A stretch of DNA of 64,000 nucleotides from a virus. Position 1 is the first letter of the stretch. Each line of letters starts with the position of its first letter. The notes under the pieces were generated by a model. That model was given only the letters and a program-made list of their open reading frames with translations, made no database searches and was not told the DNA's origin. The stretch spans positions 1 through 64,000 of IMG/VR virus record IMGVR_UViG_3300044695_008209. One strand, 5' to 3'. The position numbers and the translations under genes are program-made. Positions 7,997 through 54,722 of this stretch are shown here, piece after piece.

Positions 7997-8211
7997 GACA
8001 GCGCCCAGATGCCGTTTCGGAGAACAAGCTCTACGACCCGGGTCAGTCGGTGGTAGCGGATGAGCACGGAGTGCTTGCCCGCCCCCTCGACCTGCTGCCT
8101 GTTGATGAGGCGCTCGTCGGGTTGGAGCGTGAAGTCCTTGTTCTCGACGAAGTCCGCGAGAACCGCGGACTTCGAGTCGTAGTCGCGGCCATAGGCCGGG
8201 GTCAACGTCAT
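7993..8211 (-). CDS. small hypothetical phage protein (72 aa)
   Basis: GGAGG RBS; CATAAG at 8245-8250; GTGA overlap with topoisomerase gene. Confidence 0.7.
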   Translation of the reverse strand: MTLTPAYGRDYDSKSAVLADFVENKDFTLQPDERLINRQQVEGAGKHSVLIRYHRLTRVVELVLRNGIWALS

Positions 8212-25673: not shown

Positions 25674-26293
25674 CAGCTTCCCCCCGCGCGAACGCGCTTC
25701 AGCACCATCGCGTGGACCGCATGTACGGCCGCACGTGTGCCGTACATGTGCGCTGCCCAGGACAGTCGACCGCGGTCGCCACCGTGAACGTGGTTCCGCA
25801 CATTGTACCAGGGCATGTACCAGTCACCACCACAAGCTGTAGCGTCGGCCGGGCGCGCCTCCTGCTGCGCGAAGATGTCCTCGAGCTCGCCGTTCTCGAG
25901 GATGAGCCACCACCGGCAATCTGCATCGTGGTCGAGCACGAGCAGCGCCTCCTCTTCAGGCAGGAGGAGGATGTCGCTGGGGGTGCGCGAGGGCGCGACC
26001 GCCGGCACGGCACCCCAGAGCTCACCCTCATCGTCCTTGTGGCAGACCCACTTCCAGCCGGCGTAGTGCAGCACCAGCTCGTGACCCGCGATGTGCAGCT
26101 CGACCAGCTGGTCTGTTGACCAGTCGCCCTGGGCGCCGTCCACGGTCCAGTGCGCTACACCGAGTTCGCCCACGTCGTCGCTGACGTCGAAGTTCGAGAA
26201 GCGCCGGGAGTTCAGACGCGAGTTGATCAGCGGGAGCAGGTCGCGGTCGTCGTTGATGGGATGCGTGGAGTAGTCAGAGAACGTAACAAACAT
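25673..26293 (-). CDS. hypothetical protein (206 aa)
   Basis: CATAAG-6nt-GAGGTGAATC-ATG. Confidence 0.75.
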   Translation of the reverse strand: MFVTFSDYSTHPINDDRDLLPLINSRLNSRRFSNFDVSDDVGELGVAHWTVDGAQGDWSTDQLVELHIAGHELVLHYAGWKWVCHKDDEGELWGAVPAVAPSRTPSDILLLPEEEALLVLDHDADCRWWLILENGELEDIFAQQEARPADATACGGDWYMPWYNVRNHVHGGDRGRLSWAAHMYGTRAAVHAVHAMVLKRVRAGGS

Positions 26294-26319
26294 GATTCAC
26301 CTCAAGCTCCTTATGACCG

Positions 26320-27180
26320 CGCATCAACGCGTTTCGCATCAACCGCACCAGGAACAAATCGCCCCAACCGCTCTCGAAGGAACGCACACCACGCACACTA
26401 CAGTACCAAGGACACTCCCGTAGGAACGAAATCGGCGCATCAGGGCACGCAGGGTGAGTAGTGCGCATACAGGTAAGAACAGGGCAAGCTATGCGTTCTA
26501 AGGAATAGCAGAATGGGCTTCTTAGGGCTATTCATACAAGAACAGCATGCGCATAGGCACTCTTGTGTGTAAGAACAGTACGCGTATGGGCCATCTTGAG
26601 TGCACACAGAGTGCGTCAGCAGGGCGAAATCGCGTCTTTGTGTCTGTGGTGAACACCGCCCGGGCCGGATTTGGTCATGTTCACAACACGCACTCCTACG
26701 AGGGTTCTTGTACACGGTGTTTGCGCGCACTTCTTGCACACGCACCCACATGTACGGGCTAACACAATGACGCCACCAAGGGACGCCACCTCCTTGCGGG
26801 GGTGTGCGTGATGGGAGTCGAACCCATAGTTCACTGCTCAACTCTTATGGACGCGTTTCACGCAGATTTGCACACACGCTCATGCACGCTGCAGGACGCG
26901 CACAAGCACTCTCGTAGAGCTTAGCGTGTAGGTCCTTAGGGCCAGAGGAATCGCACCTGGGTGGAAGAAGGGGACACAGAGGTACCCAAGGCCCCAGCAC
27001 GATTTTGCTCGTACCTAAAATCAGCACTAAGACCCCCACTCTGAGGTACCTGAAGTCCTGGGCCGCGTTTGGTGCGTCTTGAAACAGGCACTTTCAGGGC
27101 GACTCCAGAACTGCTACTCCCGACACCAGTCCTACGTTCCACCACATTTCCGGGTACGGGAATGGTCGTCTTGAGAACGG
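26320..27180. other. ~860-nt low-GC non-coding block (origin/regulatory candidate)
   Basis: No ORF with the genome's codon bias; repeated AAGAACAG, GCGCATA and GCACAC words. Confidence 0.55.
26765..26837 (-). ncRNA. candidate small RNA with T-loop hairpin and GNRA hairpin
   Basis: CATAAG at 26844-26849; ATGGG-TTCGACT-CCCAT; CACCCCC-GCAA-GGAGGTG; GTTAGC at 26758. Confidence 0.4.
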
Positions 27181-27222
27181 GCTAAACAGGCACCCCCTTG
27201 CGGGAGGGTGGCTGTCGTGGCG

Positions 27223-27765
27223 TCAGTCGAATGGCGACCTGGAGAACATCTCCCGGAGCGGCCGCAGGTGCGGCTTCCGGAAGCTGCTGCTCCAGTTGAG
27301 GACCTCGCGCAGGTCCTCCGTCATCCAGCCCTTCGCCTCCAGCTTCGCCCGGAGGCGACGCTGGTACTGCGCGGAGATGGTCGGGGTGTGCCCGCACTCC
27401 GCAGCCGGAAGGCCACGGAAGCTGATATCCCACCCCACCTGCCACTTCCTCTCCTCGGTGGCCTTCTGCCAGGAGTCGAGGTCCTTCCAGGCGGCCGCCT
27501 GGAACGCCACCGCGGCACGGAGCAGGACGGCGACTTCTCGCGCCTCCTCCATCGCCCGAGCCTGGGCCTTCGCGGCACGGGCGGCCCGACGGGCGGCGAT
27601 CCTGGGGGCGCGCTGCTCCGCACGCCAGACGTCGATCGACGCGCGGAGGCGGATGGATGCCGCGAACCGCGCGGGATGCGTGGCTCCGGCGGCCCGGGCC
27701 TCCGCCGCGGTCAGAGTGAGCTTGCGCTCGCGCGGGACTACAACCTTCTTGACGATAGCAGCCAT
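27223..27765 (-). CDS. hypothetical Arg/Ala-rich protein (180 aa)
   Basis: Full cassette start. Confidence 0.75.
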   Translation of the reverse strand: MAAIVKKVVVPRERKLTLTAAEARAAGATHPARFAASIRLRASIDVWRAEQRAPRIAARRAARAAKAQARAMEEAREVAVLLRAAVAFQAAAWKDLDSWQKATEERKWQVGWDISFRGLPAAECGHTPTISAQYQRRLRAKLEAKGWMTEDLREVLNWSSSFRKPHLRPLREMFSRSPFD

Positions 27766-29781: not shown

Positions 29782-30111
29782 TCACGACTCCCGGTCCCCG
29801 AGGAAGTCGGCGGAGGGCATCGTGCGCGTGAAGCGCTTGATGCCGGCCTCGCGGTTCTTCTCGACGGTGCCCAGGTCGTCAACTGCACCGAAGGCCGCGA
29901 ACGCGGACCGCCGGAACTCGTCGACGCTGGTCCGTGCGCCGGTGGCTGCAGTGATGGGGAACACGCGCTCCACCTCCTGCCCGTACTTGCCGAACAGGAC
30001 GATGCAGTGCTCGTTCCGGCCCAGGCCGTTGGAGGGCCACCGCTGCTTGATCCCGAACCGGACCACGATGCCGCCGGCGTCGAGGGTGTCCTCAACGAAC
30101 TCGGCGCTCAC
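29782..30111 (-). CDS. hypothetical protein (109 aa)
   Basis: GGAG upstream, GTGA overlap. Confidence 0.65.
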   Translation of the reverse strand: MSAEFVEDTLDAGGIVVRFGIKQRWPSNGLGRNEHCIVLFGKYGQEVERVFPITAATGARTSVDEFRRSAFAAFGAVDDLGTVEKNREAGIKRFTRTMPSADFLGDRES

Positions 30112-30500
30112 AGAGCACCGCCGATCTGCACCGCGCGGCGCACCGTGCGCTTGTCGGTCTCGAATGCGAGGGCGTCGACGACGTCCTCGAAGCGCACCGG
30201 GTCGATGACGTGCCGGTGGAGCAGGATCGCCGCGTTGGTCTGGCCGGCGCCGAACGTGAAGCAGGCAACGAGCTCCGCCGCCTGCGCGCAGGTGAAGCGG
30301 GGTTGCGCGGCGCACACCATGCGCAGGGCGTCGAAGCGCCCGCTGTCGAAGCTCTGGTTGTCGACGGCGCGCAGGATGCGCCGGAACGTGACGAGGTCGA
30401 TGGCAGCCCGGGCGTTCTCCGGGGAAAGGGGTGGCGGCACCGGCGCGGACGCGGTGATGAAGTTGACGACGAAGAGGGGGAAGTTGGCGTAGAGAGACAT
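30108..30500 (-). CDS. DUF4476-like protein
   Basis: SFDSGR...FTCAQAAELVACFTF...VIDPVRFEDVVDALAF. Confidence 0.7.
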   Translation of the reverse strand: MSLYANFPLFVVNFITASAPVPPPLSPENARAAIDLVTFRRILRAVDNQSFDSGRFDALRMVCAAQPRFTCAQAAELVACFTFGAGQTNAAILLHRHVIDPVRFEDVVDALAFETDKRTVRRAVQIGGAL

Positions 30501-30592
30501 GTTCACCTCAGCCTCCTTATGTCCGGATCCTGCACGGGTTTCATCCACTGCCTCCAGCGCCTCAGCTAAAGGGGCGAGCCCCTGGGGGGTGC

Positions 30593-30982
30593 TCACCCGC
30601 GGCCGACGGGCCCGAGGAGCCCACCCTCGTCCTCGGGGACGCTGGCGAACCTCTCGAGGAGCTGGAGCAACTCCAGCTCGGCCTGCCGACCGCCCCAGGC
30701 GGCCAGGGACTCGACCGGGGCGGGGAGCCTGAGACCCCTCGCCTCGCGGGCGATGAGCTTGAAGACCAGGTCCTCGACGTGGAGGGCCGCGGCCTCCACG
30801 TCGCCATCCCCGAGGGGGAAGAGCTCCTCCCCCGCCCACTGCACGAAGTGGGCATGGACGAGTTCGAGATCCTCCGGCACGCGGGGGAGCTCCGTGACCT
30901 CACGGAGCGCCTGCCGCAGCTCGGCGACGGGGATGACCTCGCGCTTCGCCCAGCGCTCGGCCATCTGCTGGATCATGGACAT
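30593..30982 (-). CDS. hypothetical protein (129 aa)
   Basis: GAGGTGAAC-ATG. Confidence 0.7.
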   Translation of the reverse strand: MSMIQQMAERWAKREVIPVAELRQALREVTELPRVPEDLELVHAHFVQWAGEELFPLGDGDVEAAALHVEDLVFKLIAREARGLRLPAPVESLAAWGGRQAELELLQLLERFASVPEDEGGLLGPVGRG

Positions 30983-30994
30983 GTTCACCTCGAA

Positions 30995-31377
30995 GTTGGA
31001 AGGGAAGCCGATGCTCTGGGCGACCCCAGAACGTGCTCGGCAAACACACCACGATGCGCCTCGTGTAGCCCCCAGACCGGGGGTCAGGTTGTTCCCAGCC
31101 TCGTGGCAGCGCGAGCATCCTCGCCTGACTCGCGCCACAGGATCCCTCCTGGATCCCAGACTTTCGCCCCCGCTTGTCTCGGCTCGGGGTGAGCCTACCG
31201 GCGTACGTTTGCCCTGCTCCTTCAGTCGAGTCAGGGACTCCTCGAGACGTCTCTCGAGGCACCACTGCATCTCGCAGCGTTCGTTCCGATAGCCCGGCGA
31301 GGTGGTCAGCCCCATTCTCGCCCCAGGCATGGCACAGCAGCGTTGTTCACCTCCGAAGATGAGTGTAGAAGTCTGCT
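30995..31377 (-). ncRNA. long structured 5' leader / ncRNA candidate
   Basis: Follows CATAAG (31384-31389); cUUCGg and GNRA loops; 9-bp long-range pair CCTGACTCG/CGAGTCAGG (31227-31235 with 31124-31132). Confidence 0.5.
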
Positions 31378-31503
31378 ACCTACCTTATGGCGTAGAACCT
31401 GCGGAGTTTCCCCTAAATGGACGCGCCGGGTGGGAGGTAACGAGAGGATGCAGCGACTTTGTCGGTCTGCATCGTTCCCGCCCACCCTCACGTCGAGAGG
31501 ACC

Positions 31504-32076
31504 TCAGACCCCCTCGACCACGTCGAGGAGCTCCAGGACCCAGCCGCGGTGCGCGACGCGGCTGCGCTCGAACCGCACCTGCTCGCGCAGGTGCGAGCGC
31601 AGGTCCGGACGCACGTCGAGCACCGAGGCCACCTGCGAGAGCACCTCCTCCGCCACTCGCTGCGACCCAGAGTGCTCGACGAAGGCCTCCGCGGCCTCTA
31701 CGAGCCACACTGCCTCGACGAACCACAGGTCCGTCGAGAGGAGGGTCTCCTCCGATCTCGGCAGCTGCAGGAACTCGGCCTCGTAGAAGCCGAGCATCCG
31801 CCCGGCCGCCAGGTGGTCGAACAGAGCCGAGCCCGCCTCGGGCCCGACATCATCCCGCCATCGGAGAGCAATCTCCGCCTCCCCGCGCCACCGCGGGGAA
31901 CGACAGACGTGCTCCCTGTACAGGTCGTACAGGTAGACGGCACGCGCCCGCGCCAGCGCCGCGCGGAGCAGATTGTTCAGCTCGGCAACGGAGTCCACGG
32001 GCAGGCCGAGCGGCTCGGTGCGGGAGAGGCTCTCCGCGTGGCGGAGGGTCTCGCGGGCAGAAGGGGAGAGACGCAT
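31504..32076 (-). CDS. hypothetical protein (190 aa)
   Basis: Full cassette start. Confidence 0.75.
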   Translation of the reverse strand: MRLSPSARETLRHAESLSRTEPLGLPVDSVAELNNLLRAALARARAVYLYDLYREHVCRSPRWRGEAEIALRWRDDVGPEAGSALFDHLAAGRMLGFYEAEFLQLPRSEETLLSTDLWFVEAVWLVEAAEAFVEHSGSQRVAEEVLSQVASVLDVRPDLRSHLREQVRFERSRVAHRGWVLELLDVVEGV

Positions 32077-32123
32077 GTTCACCTCACCATACTTATGCCC
32101 AGAATCGGCCGGGGTTTGAGCTA

Positions 32124-32269
32124 AGAAACGGGGGTGGGAGAGGGGGTTTCAGCTGCTCGCGCAGTTTCGCAGTGTGCACCACACCGAGCCGAGTTGCCGG
32201 GGCGTCCCCCGGCGTGTGGACGCGCATCTCTGCGCGTCACTCCTCAGCAGCCCCTCTCCCGGCGTTTCT
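32124..32269. repeat. 146-nt multi-stem inverted-repeat element abutting TTAGC
   Basis: AGAAACG/CGTTTCT, GGGAGAGGGG/CCCCTCTCCC, CTGCT/AGCAG closing stems; internal GACGCGCA-GAGA-TGCGCGTC and GCCGGGG-GAC-GCCCCGGC hairpins. Confidence 0.7.
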
Positions 32270-33360: not shown

Positions 33361-33400
33361 GTTCACCTCACTCCTCTTATGCCCGAAGAAGGCCGTATCT

Positions 33401-33450
33401 TGGCTAAAAGAGCGCGACCACCACCGTACTCCCTTCCGGTGGTGGTCGCG
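33401..33450 (-). terminator. intrinsic terminator-like hairpin
   Basis: Perfect 14-bp stem 33413-33426/33437-33450, 10-nt loop, then CTCTTTTAGC on minus strand. Confidence 0.8.
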
Positions 33451-33466
33451 TCTTGTCCTGAAGTAG

Positions 33467-33694
33467 TGGAGGGGAGGGGACTCGAACCCCACTCGCCCGC
33501 TTCGTTCCGACCAGTTAGCCGCTCTTCGCCCCCCTGCAGGGATTCAAGATGCTGGTCCAGCGCCTCACTCAGAGCTGCGCAGACCGCGATGCGTGATTTA
33601 GGCGTGAGTCTCGACCGACTTCCTCGGTCCTCAGTTCGTGCGAGCCTCGTGTCCGTCTATTAGGACGTCCGGCACCTGCACGGATTCCCCCTCC
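33467..33694 (-). ncRNA. 228-nt tRNA-shaped RNA with ~150-nt insertion (tRNA/tmRNA-like)
   Basis: Acceptor GGAGGGG/CCCCTCC+A; D arm TCCG/CGGA with GG; CGTC-CTAATA-GACG arm; T arm GGGG-TTCGAGT-CCCC; own promoter and terminator; no encoded CCA. Confidence 0.7.
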
Positions 33695-33712
33695 AGCACA
33701 CTTATGCCCGAA

Positions 33713-34156
33713 CTACGCGGCGTTTTCCACACGGAAGGTGCCGTCCGGCCAGACGATGAAGACCGGAATGCCGCGCTTCCTGGCCCTGCGGATCGTCGAC
33801 CAGGTGCCCGACCGGAGCTCTTCCTCGAACCCCGCCGGCGCGGCGATGAGGACGTCGCTCTCATCCACGATGTCCTGATTGCGGTCCAGGGGCGGCTTCG
33901 GGGGCCTCTCGCTGAGGTAGTACGGCAGCGCGTCGTGCCACTTCAGGCAGTTCGCCCGCTTCGACGGGATGTCGCATGGGTGCGCGATCACGTTGATGCT
34001 GCGGACGCCGCACAGGTAGTCGAACTCCCCATCGGCGCCGACGCAGTCGCCGTGCCGCGCGAACGAGATGTCCTGCGTGTCCGAGAGCATCTCGCCCACG
34101 CGGAGCTTCTGGGCCCCGGTCATGCCCTTCTGGGTCCCGGTGAACCCGACGATCAT
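33713..34156 (-). CDS. SLOG-superfamily (DprA/YspA-like) nucleotide-binding protein
   Basis: IVGFTG...HGDCVGAD...LDRNQDIVDESDVLIA...SGTWSTIRRARKRGIPV. Confidence 0.8.
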   Translation of the reverse strand: MIVGFTGTQKGMTGAQKLRVGEMLSDTQDISFARHGDCVGADGEFDYLCGVRSINVIAHPCDIPSKRANCLKWHDALPYYLSERPPKPPLDRNQDIVDESDVLIAAPAGFEEELRSGTWSTIRRARKRGIPVFIVWPDGTFRVENAA

Positions 34157-53888: not shown

Positions 53889-54198
53889 ACAGTCCCTCCC
53901 GGAGACGCACCAACTCCCCAGGGGGACCACGAGCGGGCAGGGGCGCATCGCGCAGCTCGCTCTCGGTGCTGCAGTAGCCGAGCAGAGTCGAGGTCAGGGA
54001 GCCGGGGACGCGTCGCCCGGACGCATCGACCTCCCACCGCGCGTACGCCTGGATGTAGCACTCCAGCTCGGGGCGCCAAGTCACGTAGACGCCGCCCACG
54101 ACGTCCCCGTCGACCTCCACGAACCCCACTGACCAGAAGTCGACGGGACCCGCTCCGCAGGTCGGGCACTGGTACAGCGCCGAGGCGACCTCCACCAT
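53761..54198 (-). CDS. hypothetical protein (CPTC); 3' end uncertain
   Basis: Codon bias in the N-terminal half only. Confidence 0.45.
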   Translation of the reverse strand: MVEVASALYQCPTCGAGPVDFWSVGFVEVDGDVVGGVYVTWRPELECYIQAYARWEVDASGRRVPGSLTSTLLGYCSTESELRDAPLPARGPPGELVRLREGLFSSPLGEKTDQRGGRGGRSGGGPSPSGGVGPSSQPRRRKRAG

Positions 54199-54353
54199 GA
54201 GATGCGCCGGCTGAATCGGACAATGAAGCTGCATTATTCCTCCACTAAGAAAGATGCCTCGCGAACTTCGTAGGTCCGCAGAGAGGCGAGGTAGGGTTCT
54301 GCAGTTCCATAGTTCTTATGCGTCTTTTAGCTGGGAGTTATGGGACGACCCCC

Positions 54354-54722
54354 TCAGGCGGAGGGGGTGTTGTCCAGGGTCTGCTGCCGGATCTGCATCA
54401 GCAGCAGGAGCGCGCGGGCGTCACCCGGCTCCTCCAGGGCCTCGTTGAGCAAATCGACCTGCTCGTCCGTGGCGAAGTACGCCACCCCGCCGATGGTGAC
54501 CGGCTTGTAGGGAGAGGTCCCCTTCCCGTCGAACTCCTTGCGCACGGCCGCGGCGATGCGCTCCGCGGCCCCCGACTGCGCGCTGTTCAGCATCACGCCC
54601 GCCATCAGGCGTCGCGCGCGCATGTCCTTGATGTGCTTCTCGCTCTGCCAGGCGGCGACGCTGAGCGCCGCGTCCAGGGCAGCAGCCGCTGGAAGCGCGG
54701 CGAGGATGAAGAGAAAGGGCAT
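54354..54722 (-). CDS. hypothetical protein with hydrophobic N-terminus
   Basis: CATAAG at 54746; GGAGG RBS. Confidence 0.65.
   Translation of the reverse strand: MPFLFILAALPAAAALDAALSVAAWQSEKHIKDMRARRLMAGVMLNSAQSGAAERIAAAVRKEFDGKGTSPYKPVTIGGVAYFATDEQVDLLNEALEEPGDARALLLLMQIRQQTLDNTPSA

Follow-up and report, generated by a model that had tools for sequence, protein, structure and literature searches.

Structured leaders that occlude a ribosome-binding site (RBS) are represented by riboswitch platforms, RNA thermometers and protein-titrated leaders. Cis-acting RNAs of processive antitermination, such as HK022 put and B. subtilis EAR, sit downstream of early promoters, and the comparative genomics of T4-like phages and mycobacteriophages has established that gene remnants, or scars, occur in the hyperplastic accessory regions of large phages. 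The 5' untranslated regions (UTRs) of the jumbo phage phiKZ are typically 31–40 nt long (PMC8244752). The locus analysed here is a stretch of about 390 nt on the minus strand of an uncultured phage, located between a putative early promoter and the next gene; this length is far above the typical phiKZ values, and by analogy with them the leader appears unusually long.

The leader is similar to RBS-occluding leaders in its position between promoter and start codon, in its several stable predicted hairpins, in a predicted helix over the Shine–Dalgarno (SD) sequence and the AUG, and in the presence of an anti-SD-like CACCUCG word, while it differs from them in having no aptamer family, no conservation and a normal accessibility of the start. 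An array of stem-loops immediately behind an early promoter, in a phage whose cassettes each end in an intrinsic terminator, is reminiscent of HK022 put and B. subtilis EAR; however, the unit to which the leader belongs takes in a single further gene before the next junction closes it, and the likeness is one of layout alone. Gene scars of large phages find parallels in the gene order of the island, which differs in three lineages, in a promoter-SD head of vestigial appearance and in a truncated gene in a relative, the difference being that the leader carries no residual similarity that could name the lost gene.

The window, i.e., the whole stretch of DNA that was analysed, comprises bases 1–64000 of a 182,777-bp IMG/VR virus record (182.8 kb) with an estimated completeness of 99%. 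The genome (G000) has a G+C content of about 66%, and its genes include one for a topoisomerase II / GyrB-like protein. A single ORF of about 2100 aa, located outside the window (G000:C1:112319-118630, plus strand; loci L131–L133), contains beta Rpb2_6 (E 1e-70) and beta' Rpb1_2 (E 1e-25) domains, and the phage is predicted on the basis of these domains to encode a fused beta-beta' RNA polymerase. A search of the phage for a sigma-70 region 2 domain detected none. No tRNA or tmRNA was found by ARAGORN in the window, the whole genome or the genome of the only close relative, G001 (188 kb).

Between approximately 8 and 55 kb, nearly all genes lie on the minus strand and are arranged as short cassettes. 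The hexamer CATAAG occurs in 27 minus-strand copies in the window, and alignment of these sites revealed A at -19 in 24/27, A at -20 in 17/27 and G at -2 in 24/27. CATAAGG was counted 11 times (expected number, 1.3) and the SD-ATG word GAGGTGAACATG 14 times when one mismatch was allowed (expected number, 0.28); the promoter motif and the SD-ATG word are two features far beyond chance. Most CATAAG copies are followed within 6–30 nt by GAGGTGAAC and a start codon, and many of the promoters are preceded by a G+C-rich hairpin ending in UUUAGC, which is the shape of an intrinsic terminator; the true terminators of this phage have stems of 10–14 bp followed by UUUAGC. Since the distance from the terminator tail to CATAAG is variable (3–29 nt), this tail was assigned to the terminator rather than to a -35 box, and TTTAGC was dropped as a -35 element of fixed spacing. 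A recurrent junction module, consisting of a UUUAGC-tailed terminator hairpin, a gap of 3–29 nt, AA-N16-G-N-CATAAG and then GAGGTGAAC-ATG, was observed in the window at 8000–55000 (minus strand), for example at 33375–33470.

The CATAAG site at 31389 has every conserved promoter position (Table 1) and, judged by its letters, is a complete copy of the presumed early promoter motif of the phage. It shares with the early cassettes AA at -20/-19, G at -2, CATAAG and an SD within about 6–30 nt, but lacks the usual start codon behind this SD. A first-pass annotation of this DNA had listed a number of sequence words around this site, and every one of them was recovered in its place on the minus strand. 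As it had described, CATAAG (31389–31384) is followed by the next canonical GAGGTGAAC-ATG about 390 nt away (the word spans 30991–30980, with the ATG at 30982), and no second promoter, neither CATAAG nor a sigma-70-like site, was found between 31384 and 30991. The orphan GAGGTGAAC without ATG that it had noticed near 31345 was located at 31353–31345. Among the 13 promoter-linked GAGGTGAA sites of the genome, no other lacks a start codon 1–2 nt past the 8-mer, and the spacing of this orphan word from the promoter resembles that of other cassettes with leaders of 25–30 nt. ATG 30982 is the sole canonical translation start before the next junction and has no promoter of its own; if the next gene is expressed from the 31389 promoter, the leader of about 390 nt must be transcribed. 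The reported AGCAG/CTGCT and GCC-GGTA-GGC pairs are both present in the leader, as are GGATCC-AGGAG-GGATCC (31156–31140) and the GTGGC..GCGAG/CTCGC..GCCAC hairpin (31138–31104), and the hairpin CCTCGAGA-GACG-TCTCGAGG lies at 31259–31240.

Table 1. Features of the leader and its flanks; positions refer to the window and details are read along the minus strand.
Feature	Position	Strand	Details
Upstream early gene	31504..32082	-	192-aa ORF (190 aa in calls on other contigs), GC3 0.90
Junction element of upstream gene	31412..31503	-	Long imperfect hairpin, arms 31487-31472 / 31443-31428; tail TTTAGG 31417-31412
Early promoter-like motif	31384..31409	-	AA at -20/-19 (31409-31408), G at -2 (31391), CATAAG 31389-31384; logo of 27 copies
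Orphan Shine–Dalgarno word GAGGTGAAC	31345..31353	-	30 nt behind promoter, AAC next instead of start codon
In-frame open stretch, 116 codons	30983..31330	-	Runs from ATG 31330 into next gene; considered untranslated
Domain D1, predicted four-way junction	31190..31297	-	108 nt; closing stem and hairpins 31279-31263, 31259-31240, 31238-31211
'Pseudoknot' of the first-pass annotation	31124..31235	-	CCUGACUCG (31235-31227) and CGAGUCAGG (31132-31124), exact 9-nt complement
Domain D2, three tandem hairpins	31064..31160	-	31157-31139 (AGGAG in loop), 31136-31108, 31107-31068
Weak terminator-like site	31040..31065	-	5-bp hairpin CACGA/UCGUG, then GUGUGUUUGC
Predicted helix over start region	30972..31055	-	31055-31042 pairs with 30986-30972; encloses hairpin 31032-31013 and CCUU/GAGG pairing on SD
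129-aa ORFan gene	30593..30991	-	Canonical SD 30991-30983, ATG 30982-30980, GC3 about 0.93

The absence of a well-biased ORF from the leader was borne out by the codon statistics. The block 31005–31519, the second-largest non-coding block of the genome, shows no codon bias in any of the six frames, and the codon log-likelihood, trained on 90 long phage genes, is negative in all of them. The largest non-coding block (window 26250–27262, 1013 nt, G+C 0.56) has a counterpart of 950 nt in G001 (119766–120715), with a partial blastn alignment. In the frame of ATG 31330 the G+C content of the three codon positions is 0.61/0.63/0.70, compared with a GC3 of 0.78–0.98 in genes, and none of the three sense frames departs from such a flat profile. 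Within the stretch, just one or two stops interrupt four of the six frames, which is usual at this G+C content. Gene calls on independent contigs leave a gap of 521 nt here, and the next gene begins at 30982. An exhaustive profile search with the 245-aa protein of the ATG 31330 frame against 1.84 billion representative proteins matched the protein itself and one low-complexity repeat protein, residues 1–108 being without a relative. No protein homologue was found for a second long sense-strand frame (frame B), Pfam searches with five frames gave no match, and tblastx of the leader against the relatives returned low-complexity noise only. AlphaFold models of the 129-aa and the 245-aa protein (pLDDT 51 and 44, respectively) are both uninformative. 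The stretch is non-coding.

The search for known RNA families with Infernal, which the first-pass annotation had recommended, found no family matching the leader. At the gathering threshold, none of the 4227 covariance models of Rfam 15, which include riboswitches, ribozymes, RNase P, tmRNA, 6S, group I/II introns and GOLLD/ROOL, matched anywhere in the whole window, and in permissive scans of 151-, 421- and 801-nt stretches the best scores for the leader were 14–16 bits with E-values of at least 0.63, i.e., at the chance level. The earlier proposal of a riboswitch, ribozyme or independent ncRNA is supported as to a non-coding stretch behind a genuine promoter motif but not as to specific RNA classes, no Rfam family being matched even at E=0.1. 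The 10-nt word CAGGGCAAAC of c-di-GMP-I riboswitches is indeed present in the leader (31216–31207) and, as had also been stated, the rest of that motif does not fit. The c-di-GMP-I family (GEMM-I, RF01051) is absent from the cmscan lists at E<=10 for three nested stretches. The word CCGGUAGG, located near CAGGGCAAAC, presumably also occurs in the Vc2 aptamer, which we take as a lead only; the words of the leader sit in another helical context than in c-di-GMP-I riboswitches, namely the 3' strand of a D1 hairpin and the closing stem.

Compared with dinucleotide shuffles, the whole leader (401 nt) folds with a z-score of -2.87 on the sense and -2.29 on the antisense strand. Among 35 random 401-nt windows of the genome the mean z is -0.56 (sd 1.16), and 3/35 are at or below -2.87. 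Perfect hairpins of at least 6 bp number four in the leader, where shuffles average 1.0 +/- 0.9 (P=0.01); four or more such hairpins occur in 7% of genome windows, and the adjacent coding windows have 4–8. The main source of the hairpins is a set of repeated palindromic hexamers, CTCGAG and GGATCC among them. The predicted structure thus seems ordinary, or at most marginally unusual, for this genome. Within the leader, domain D1 has predicted pair probabilities of 0.74–0.99 in the full-length fold, and its z is -3.63 for the minus strand but -0.81 for the plus strand; 0.44% of 454 background windows of 108 nt reach -3.63, all of them gene-junction terminators. The boundaries of D1 were picked after folding; on a fixed, unbiased grid, the best window of the leader has a z of -2.86, roughly a 5–10% event per leader. 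For domain D2 the z is alike on both strands (-2.0 minus, -2.5 plus), and D2 is therefore regarded as a set of strand-symmetric DNA palindromes. Fold z-scores of the 5' and 3' parts of the leader are not significant. The junction element 31412..31503 of the upstream gene has a fold z of -3.9 (-5.0 on the grid). Another junction element, in the window at 32120–32269 (minus strand), is a multibranched structure of 150 nt ending in UUUCUUAGC, with z-scores of -5.5 (sense) and -3.2 (antisense), a much stronger signal than any within the leader.

A pseudoknot or switch formed by two complementary words had been proposed for the leader. The exact 9-nt complement is there, but the pairing does not go beyond chance, because complements of at least 9 nt arise in 31% of dinucleotide shuffles. 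An H-type pseudoknot or alternative-pairing switch was dropped, as the complement is at the chance level and its 5' partner lies inside a D1 hairpin with a pair probability of 0.98. The helix over the start region is predicted with pair probabilities of 0.78–0.86. The unpaired probability of this region, 0.29, falls within the range of 0.10–0.78 for 32 SD-ATG genes, and sequestration of the SD as a distinctive feature was dropped for this reason. The anti-SD-like CACCUCG (31305–31299) is predicted to be able to pair with either SD, and an 18-nt, 72% complement connects 31315–31298 with the true SD-AUG region; by our estimate, rather than by calculation, an anti-SD-like 6-7-mer may be expected about once per ten leaders. 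A terminator scan revealed no convincing terminator or expression platform in the leader: one terminator-like site was found against 1.6 expected by chance in 5 kb.

The 129-aa protein is represented by a single sequence in a collection of 15 billion proteins, where it occurs on seven contigs. DNA was retrieved for three of these contigs, and it departs from the window by a single SNP at most. This U>G variant at 31001 (minus strand) is the only one among independent contigs in the region, is common to an ENA and a JGI contig, and disrupts the predicted CCUU/GAGG pairing on the SD; all other copies of the leader are about 100% identical. In protein-anchored searches of IMG/VR with both flanking genes, these genes appeared as ORFans. 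Blastn against GenBank phages gave no match to the leader, and its own genome holds no paralogue. Exact-word scans of the IMG/VR, metagenome and genome collections returned chance matches only, several of which represent an unrelated ATPase gene (KQGKRT...).

Searches anchored on the neighbouring Pyr_excise and SLOG genes led to one true relative, G001, whose promoters and SD words follow the same grammar. An alignment of G000 with G001 spans 76% of the genome, at about 76% identity, but has almost no coverage at 30000–31500, and the interval from SLOG to Pyr_excise is filled differently in G001. In this relative the leader was matched neither at the DNA level, nor in six-frame comparison, nor by covariance models. 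The single-sequence covariance models of D1 and D2 (R1 and R2) hit the leader alone; this genome and four large phage genomes, among which kinship is shown for G001 only, yielded no paralogue or structural look-alike. A third lineage (L119–L121) carries a 50%-identical homologue of the upstream gene (P0004) and the same TTTAGG-CATAAG junction, and the leader is absent: in L119, the promoter behind the homologue drives an ordinary 153-aa gene directly. Gene order in the island differs in all three lineages, and, judging from these comparisons, the island is hypervariable and made up of shuffled cassettes. The ENA contig L119 contains at positions 1–300, in this order, a tRNA-Arg(GCG), a TTAGCC junction and a 19-aa C-terminal SLOG-like remnant, 74% identical to window 33713–34156, with the next promoter immediately downstream; this remnant indicates that truncation scars occur in this group. 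G000 and G001, unlike L119, are without tRNA genes.

Candidates for a gene lost from the leader (the 153-aa gene of L119, the 174- and 196-aa genes of G001 and a 169-aa gene of G000) share only SD words with it. One cassette head of G001 matches the 3' end of the leader (TCCCTTCC..TTCGAGGTGAACATG, P<0.005), and by eye, without scoring, the same head resembles the 5' head of the leader in AGCAGA and in a spacing of 29–30 nt from CATAAG. An insertion or rearrangement that split one head in two could account for this resemblance. Since the leader has the sole promoter-linked SD without a start codon and matches this G001 head, its promoter-SD head looks vestigial.

We consider it about an even chance that the stretch serves the 129-aa early gene as a non-coding 5' leader specific to this lineage, passive, remnant-derived and belonging to no recognisable RNA class. 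In favour of this reading are the lack of coding signal, the promoter motif, the vestigial look of the head, the hypervariability of the island, the ordinary fold and start accessibility, and the absence of a matching RNA family. According to this reading, RNA polymerase would start at 31389 and read through about 390 nt without a convincing terminator, and ribosomes would then load at the 30991 SD. The orphan SD could be what is left of a former cassette head, the ORF behind it having been lost or replaced as cassettes were shuffled within the island; as there is no residual similarity to any gene, this lost ORF is purely conjectural. The hairpins would be an ordinary by-product of a sequence with 63–68% G+C that is rich in palindromic hexamers, and might at most slightly dampen translation via partial occlusion of the start region. 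Against a remnant origin, compact phage genomes would not be expected to keep about 400 nt of junk after an active promoter, the sense-strand bias of D1 is not predicted for a neutral remnant, and RNA genes may be a habit of this phage, given its other promoter-driven units without ORFs. These same observations lend themselves to a functional structured RNA, a tentative and less probable reading in which the stretch would be either a cis-regulatory leader of the 129-aa gene or a stable early ncRNA around D1 freed by processing. The cis-regulator could be a ligand-, protein- or temperature-responsive switch acting via the SD, the anti-SD CACCUCG and the orphan SD. A consensus promoter ahead of the stretch in a compact genome, the lower whole-leader z on the sense strand, the strand bias and high pair probabilities of D1 together with its rarity among background windows, the 18-nt complement to the true SD-AUG, and further non-ORF promoter units in the same early region are all consistent with such an RNA. 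However, it has no Rfam match and no homologue in the searched collections, hence no covariation, and it is missing in both related lineages; the best grid window is roughly a 5–10% event and the whole-leader z is equalled by 3/35 windows; accessibility of the start region is unremarkable, a natural SNP disrupts one predicted SD pairing, and no credible terminator or expression platform is present. That a D1-centred leader is a new phage-encoded structured RNA, acting as a cis-regulator of the accessory gene or as a processed early ncRNA directed at a host or defence factor, seems improbable; in that case the early region would hold several promoter-driven RNA units, the D1 RNA among them, in a phage with a predicted fused beta-beta' RNA polymerase.

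Translation of the stretch, yielding a 245-aa protein from ATG 31330 or a 180-aa protein from GUG 31136 and thus an N-terminal extension of the 129-aa protein, is very unlikely. In its favour are 116 open codons that share the phase of the gene downstream, a GC3 of 0.82 over the first 33 of them, and a loop-displayed AGGAGG that precedes the in-frame GUG 31136 by 6 nt; but the flat G+C of the codon positions, the negative codon log-likelihood, the lack of a homologue for residues 1–108 and of a Pfam match, and the start at 30982 chosen by gene callers all argue for a non-coding stretch. Moreover, ATG 31330 lies 14 nt past the end of the SD word, against 0–2 nt after GAGGTGAAC in every other cassette, and an open frame is of little weight where four of six frames have one or two stops, as is usual at this G+C. 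An event at the DNA level, in which a non-autonomous mobile element or recombination insert of about 349 bp (31344–30996) would have split an ancestral head and duplicated CTTCG(G)AGGTGAAC, is likewise very unlikely. Near-identical words of 13–14 nt on both flanks, the resemblance of a single G001 head to the two halves and sub-terminal imperfect inverted repeats (31330–31318 / 31023–31011) would fit such an insertion, whereas unrelated heads (29212 and G001 126639) likewise have CTTCG ahead of their SD, so that the 'duplication' may be SD consensus; in addition, the inverted repeats are non-terminal and of chance quality, this genome, G001, IMG/VR and GenBank phages hold no second copy, and no transposase-like ORF is present. 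An element of the MITE or IS type was rejected, its repeats being sub-terminal and imperfect, its flanking repeat being explained by the SD consensus and no further copy being found.

The significance of a passive, remnant-derived leader, if that reading is right, would be mainly annotational: the promoter-SD-ORF-terminator cassettes of an uncultured 183-kb phage would shuffle and leave vestigial heads behind. The locus also serves as a warning that hairpin-rich, stop-free, G+C-rich spacers mimic structured RNAs. If instead the minority reading of a structured RNA were true, the phage would carry an undescribed early RNA element. The length of the leader relative to the phiKZ UTRs keeps the finding from being wholly trivial.

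Other promoters of this type were also observed in the window. Further CATAAG promoters at 33706 and 54320 (window 33401–33706, minus strand, and 54161–54399) are followed by no supported ORF for more than 200 nt, and ARAGORN calls no tRNA in the 33401–33706 unit. A CATAAG-driven unit without an ORF at 26757–26849 of the window (minus strand), seen also at L002:7539-7590, carries a T-loop-like GGTTCGACTCCCA; this unit is conserved in G001 (GGTCCAACTCCCA).
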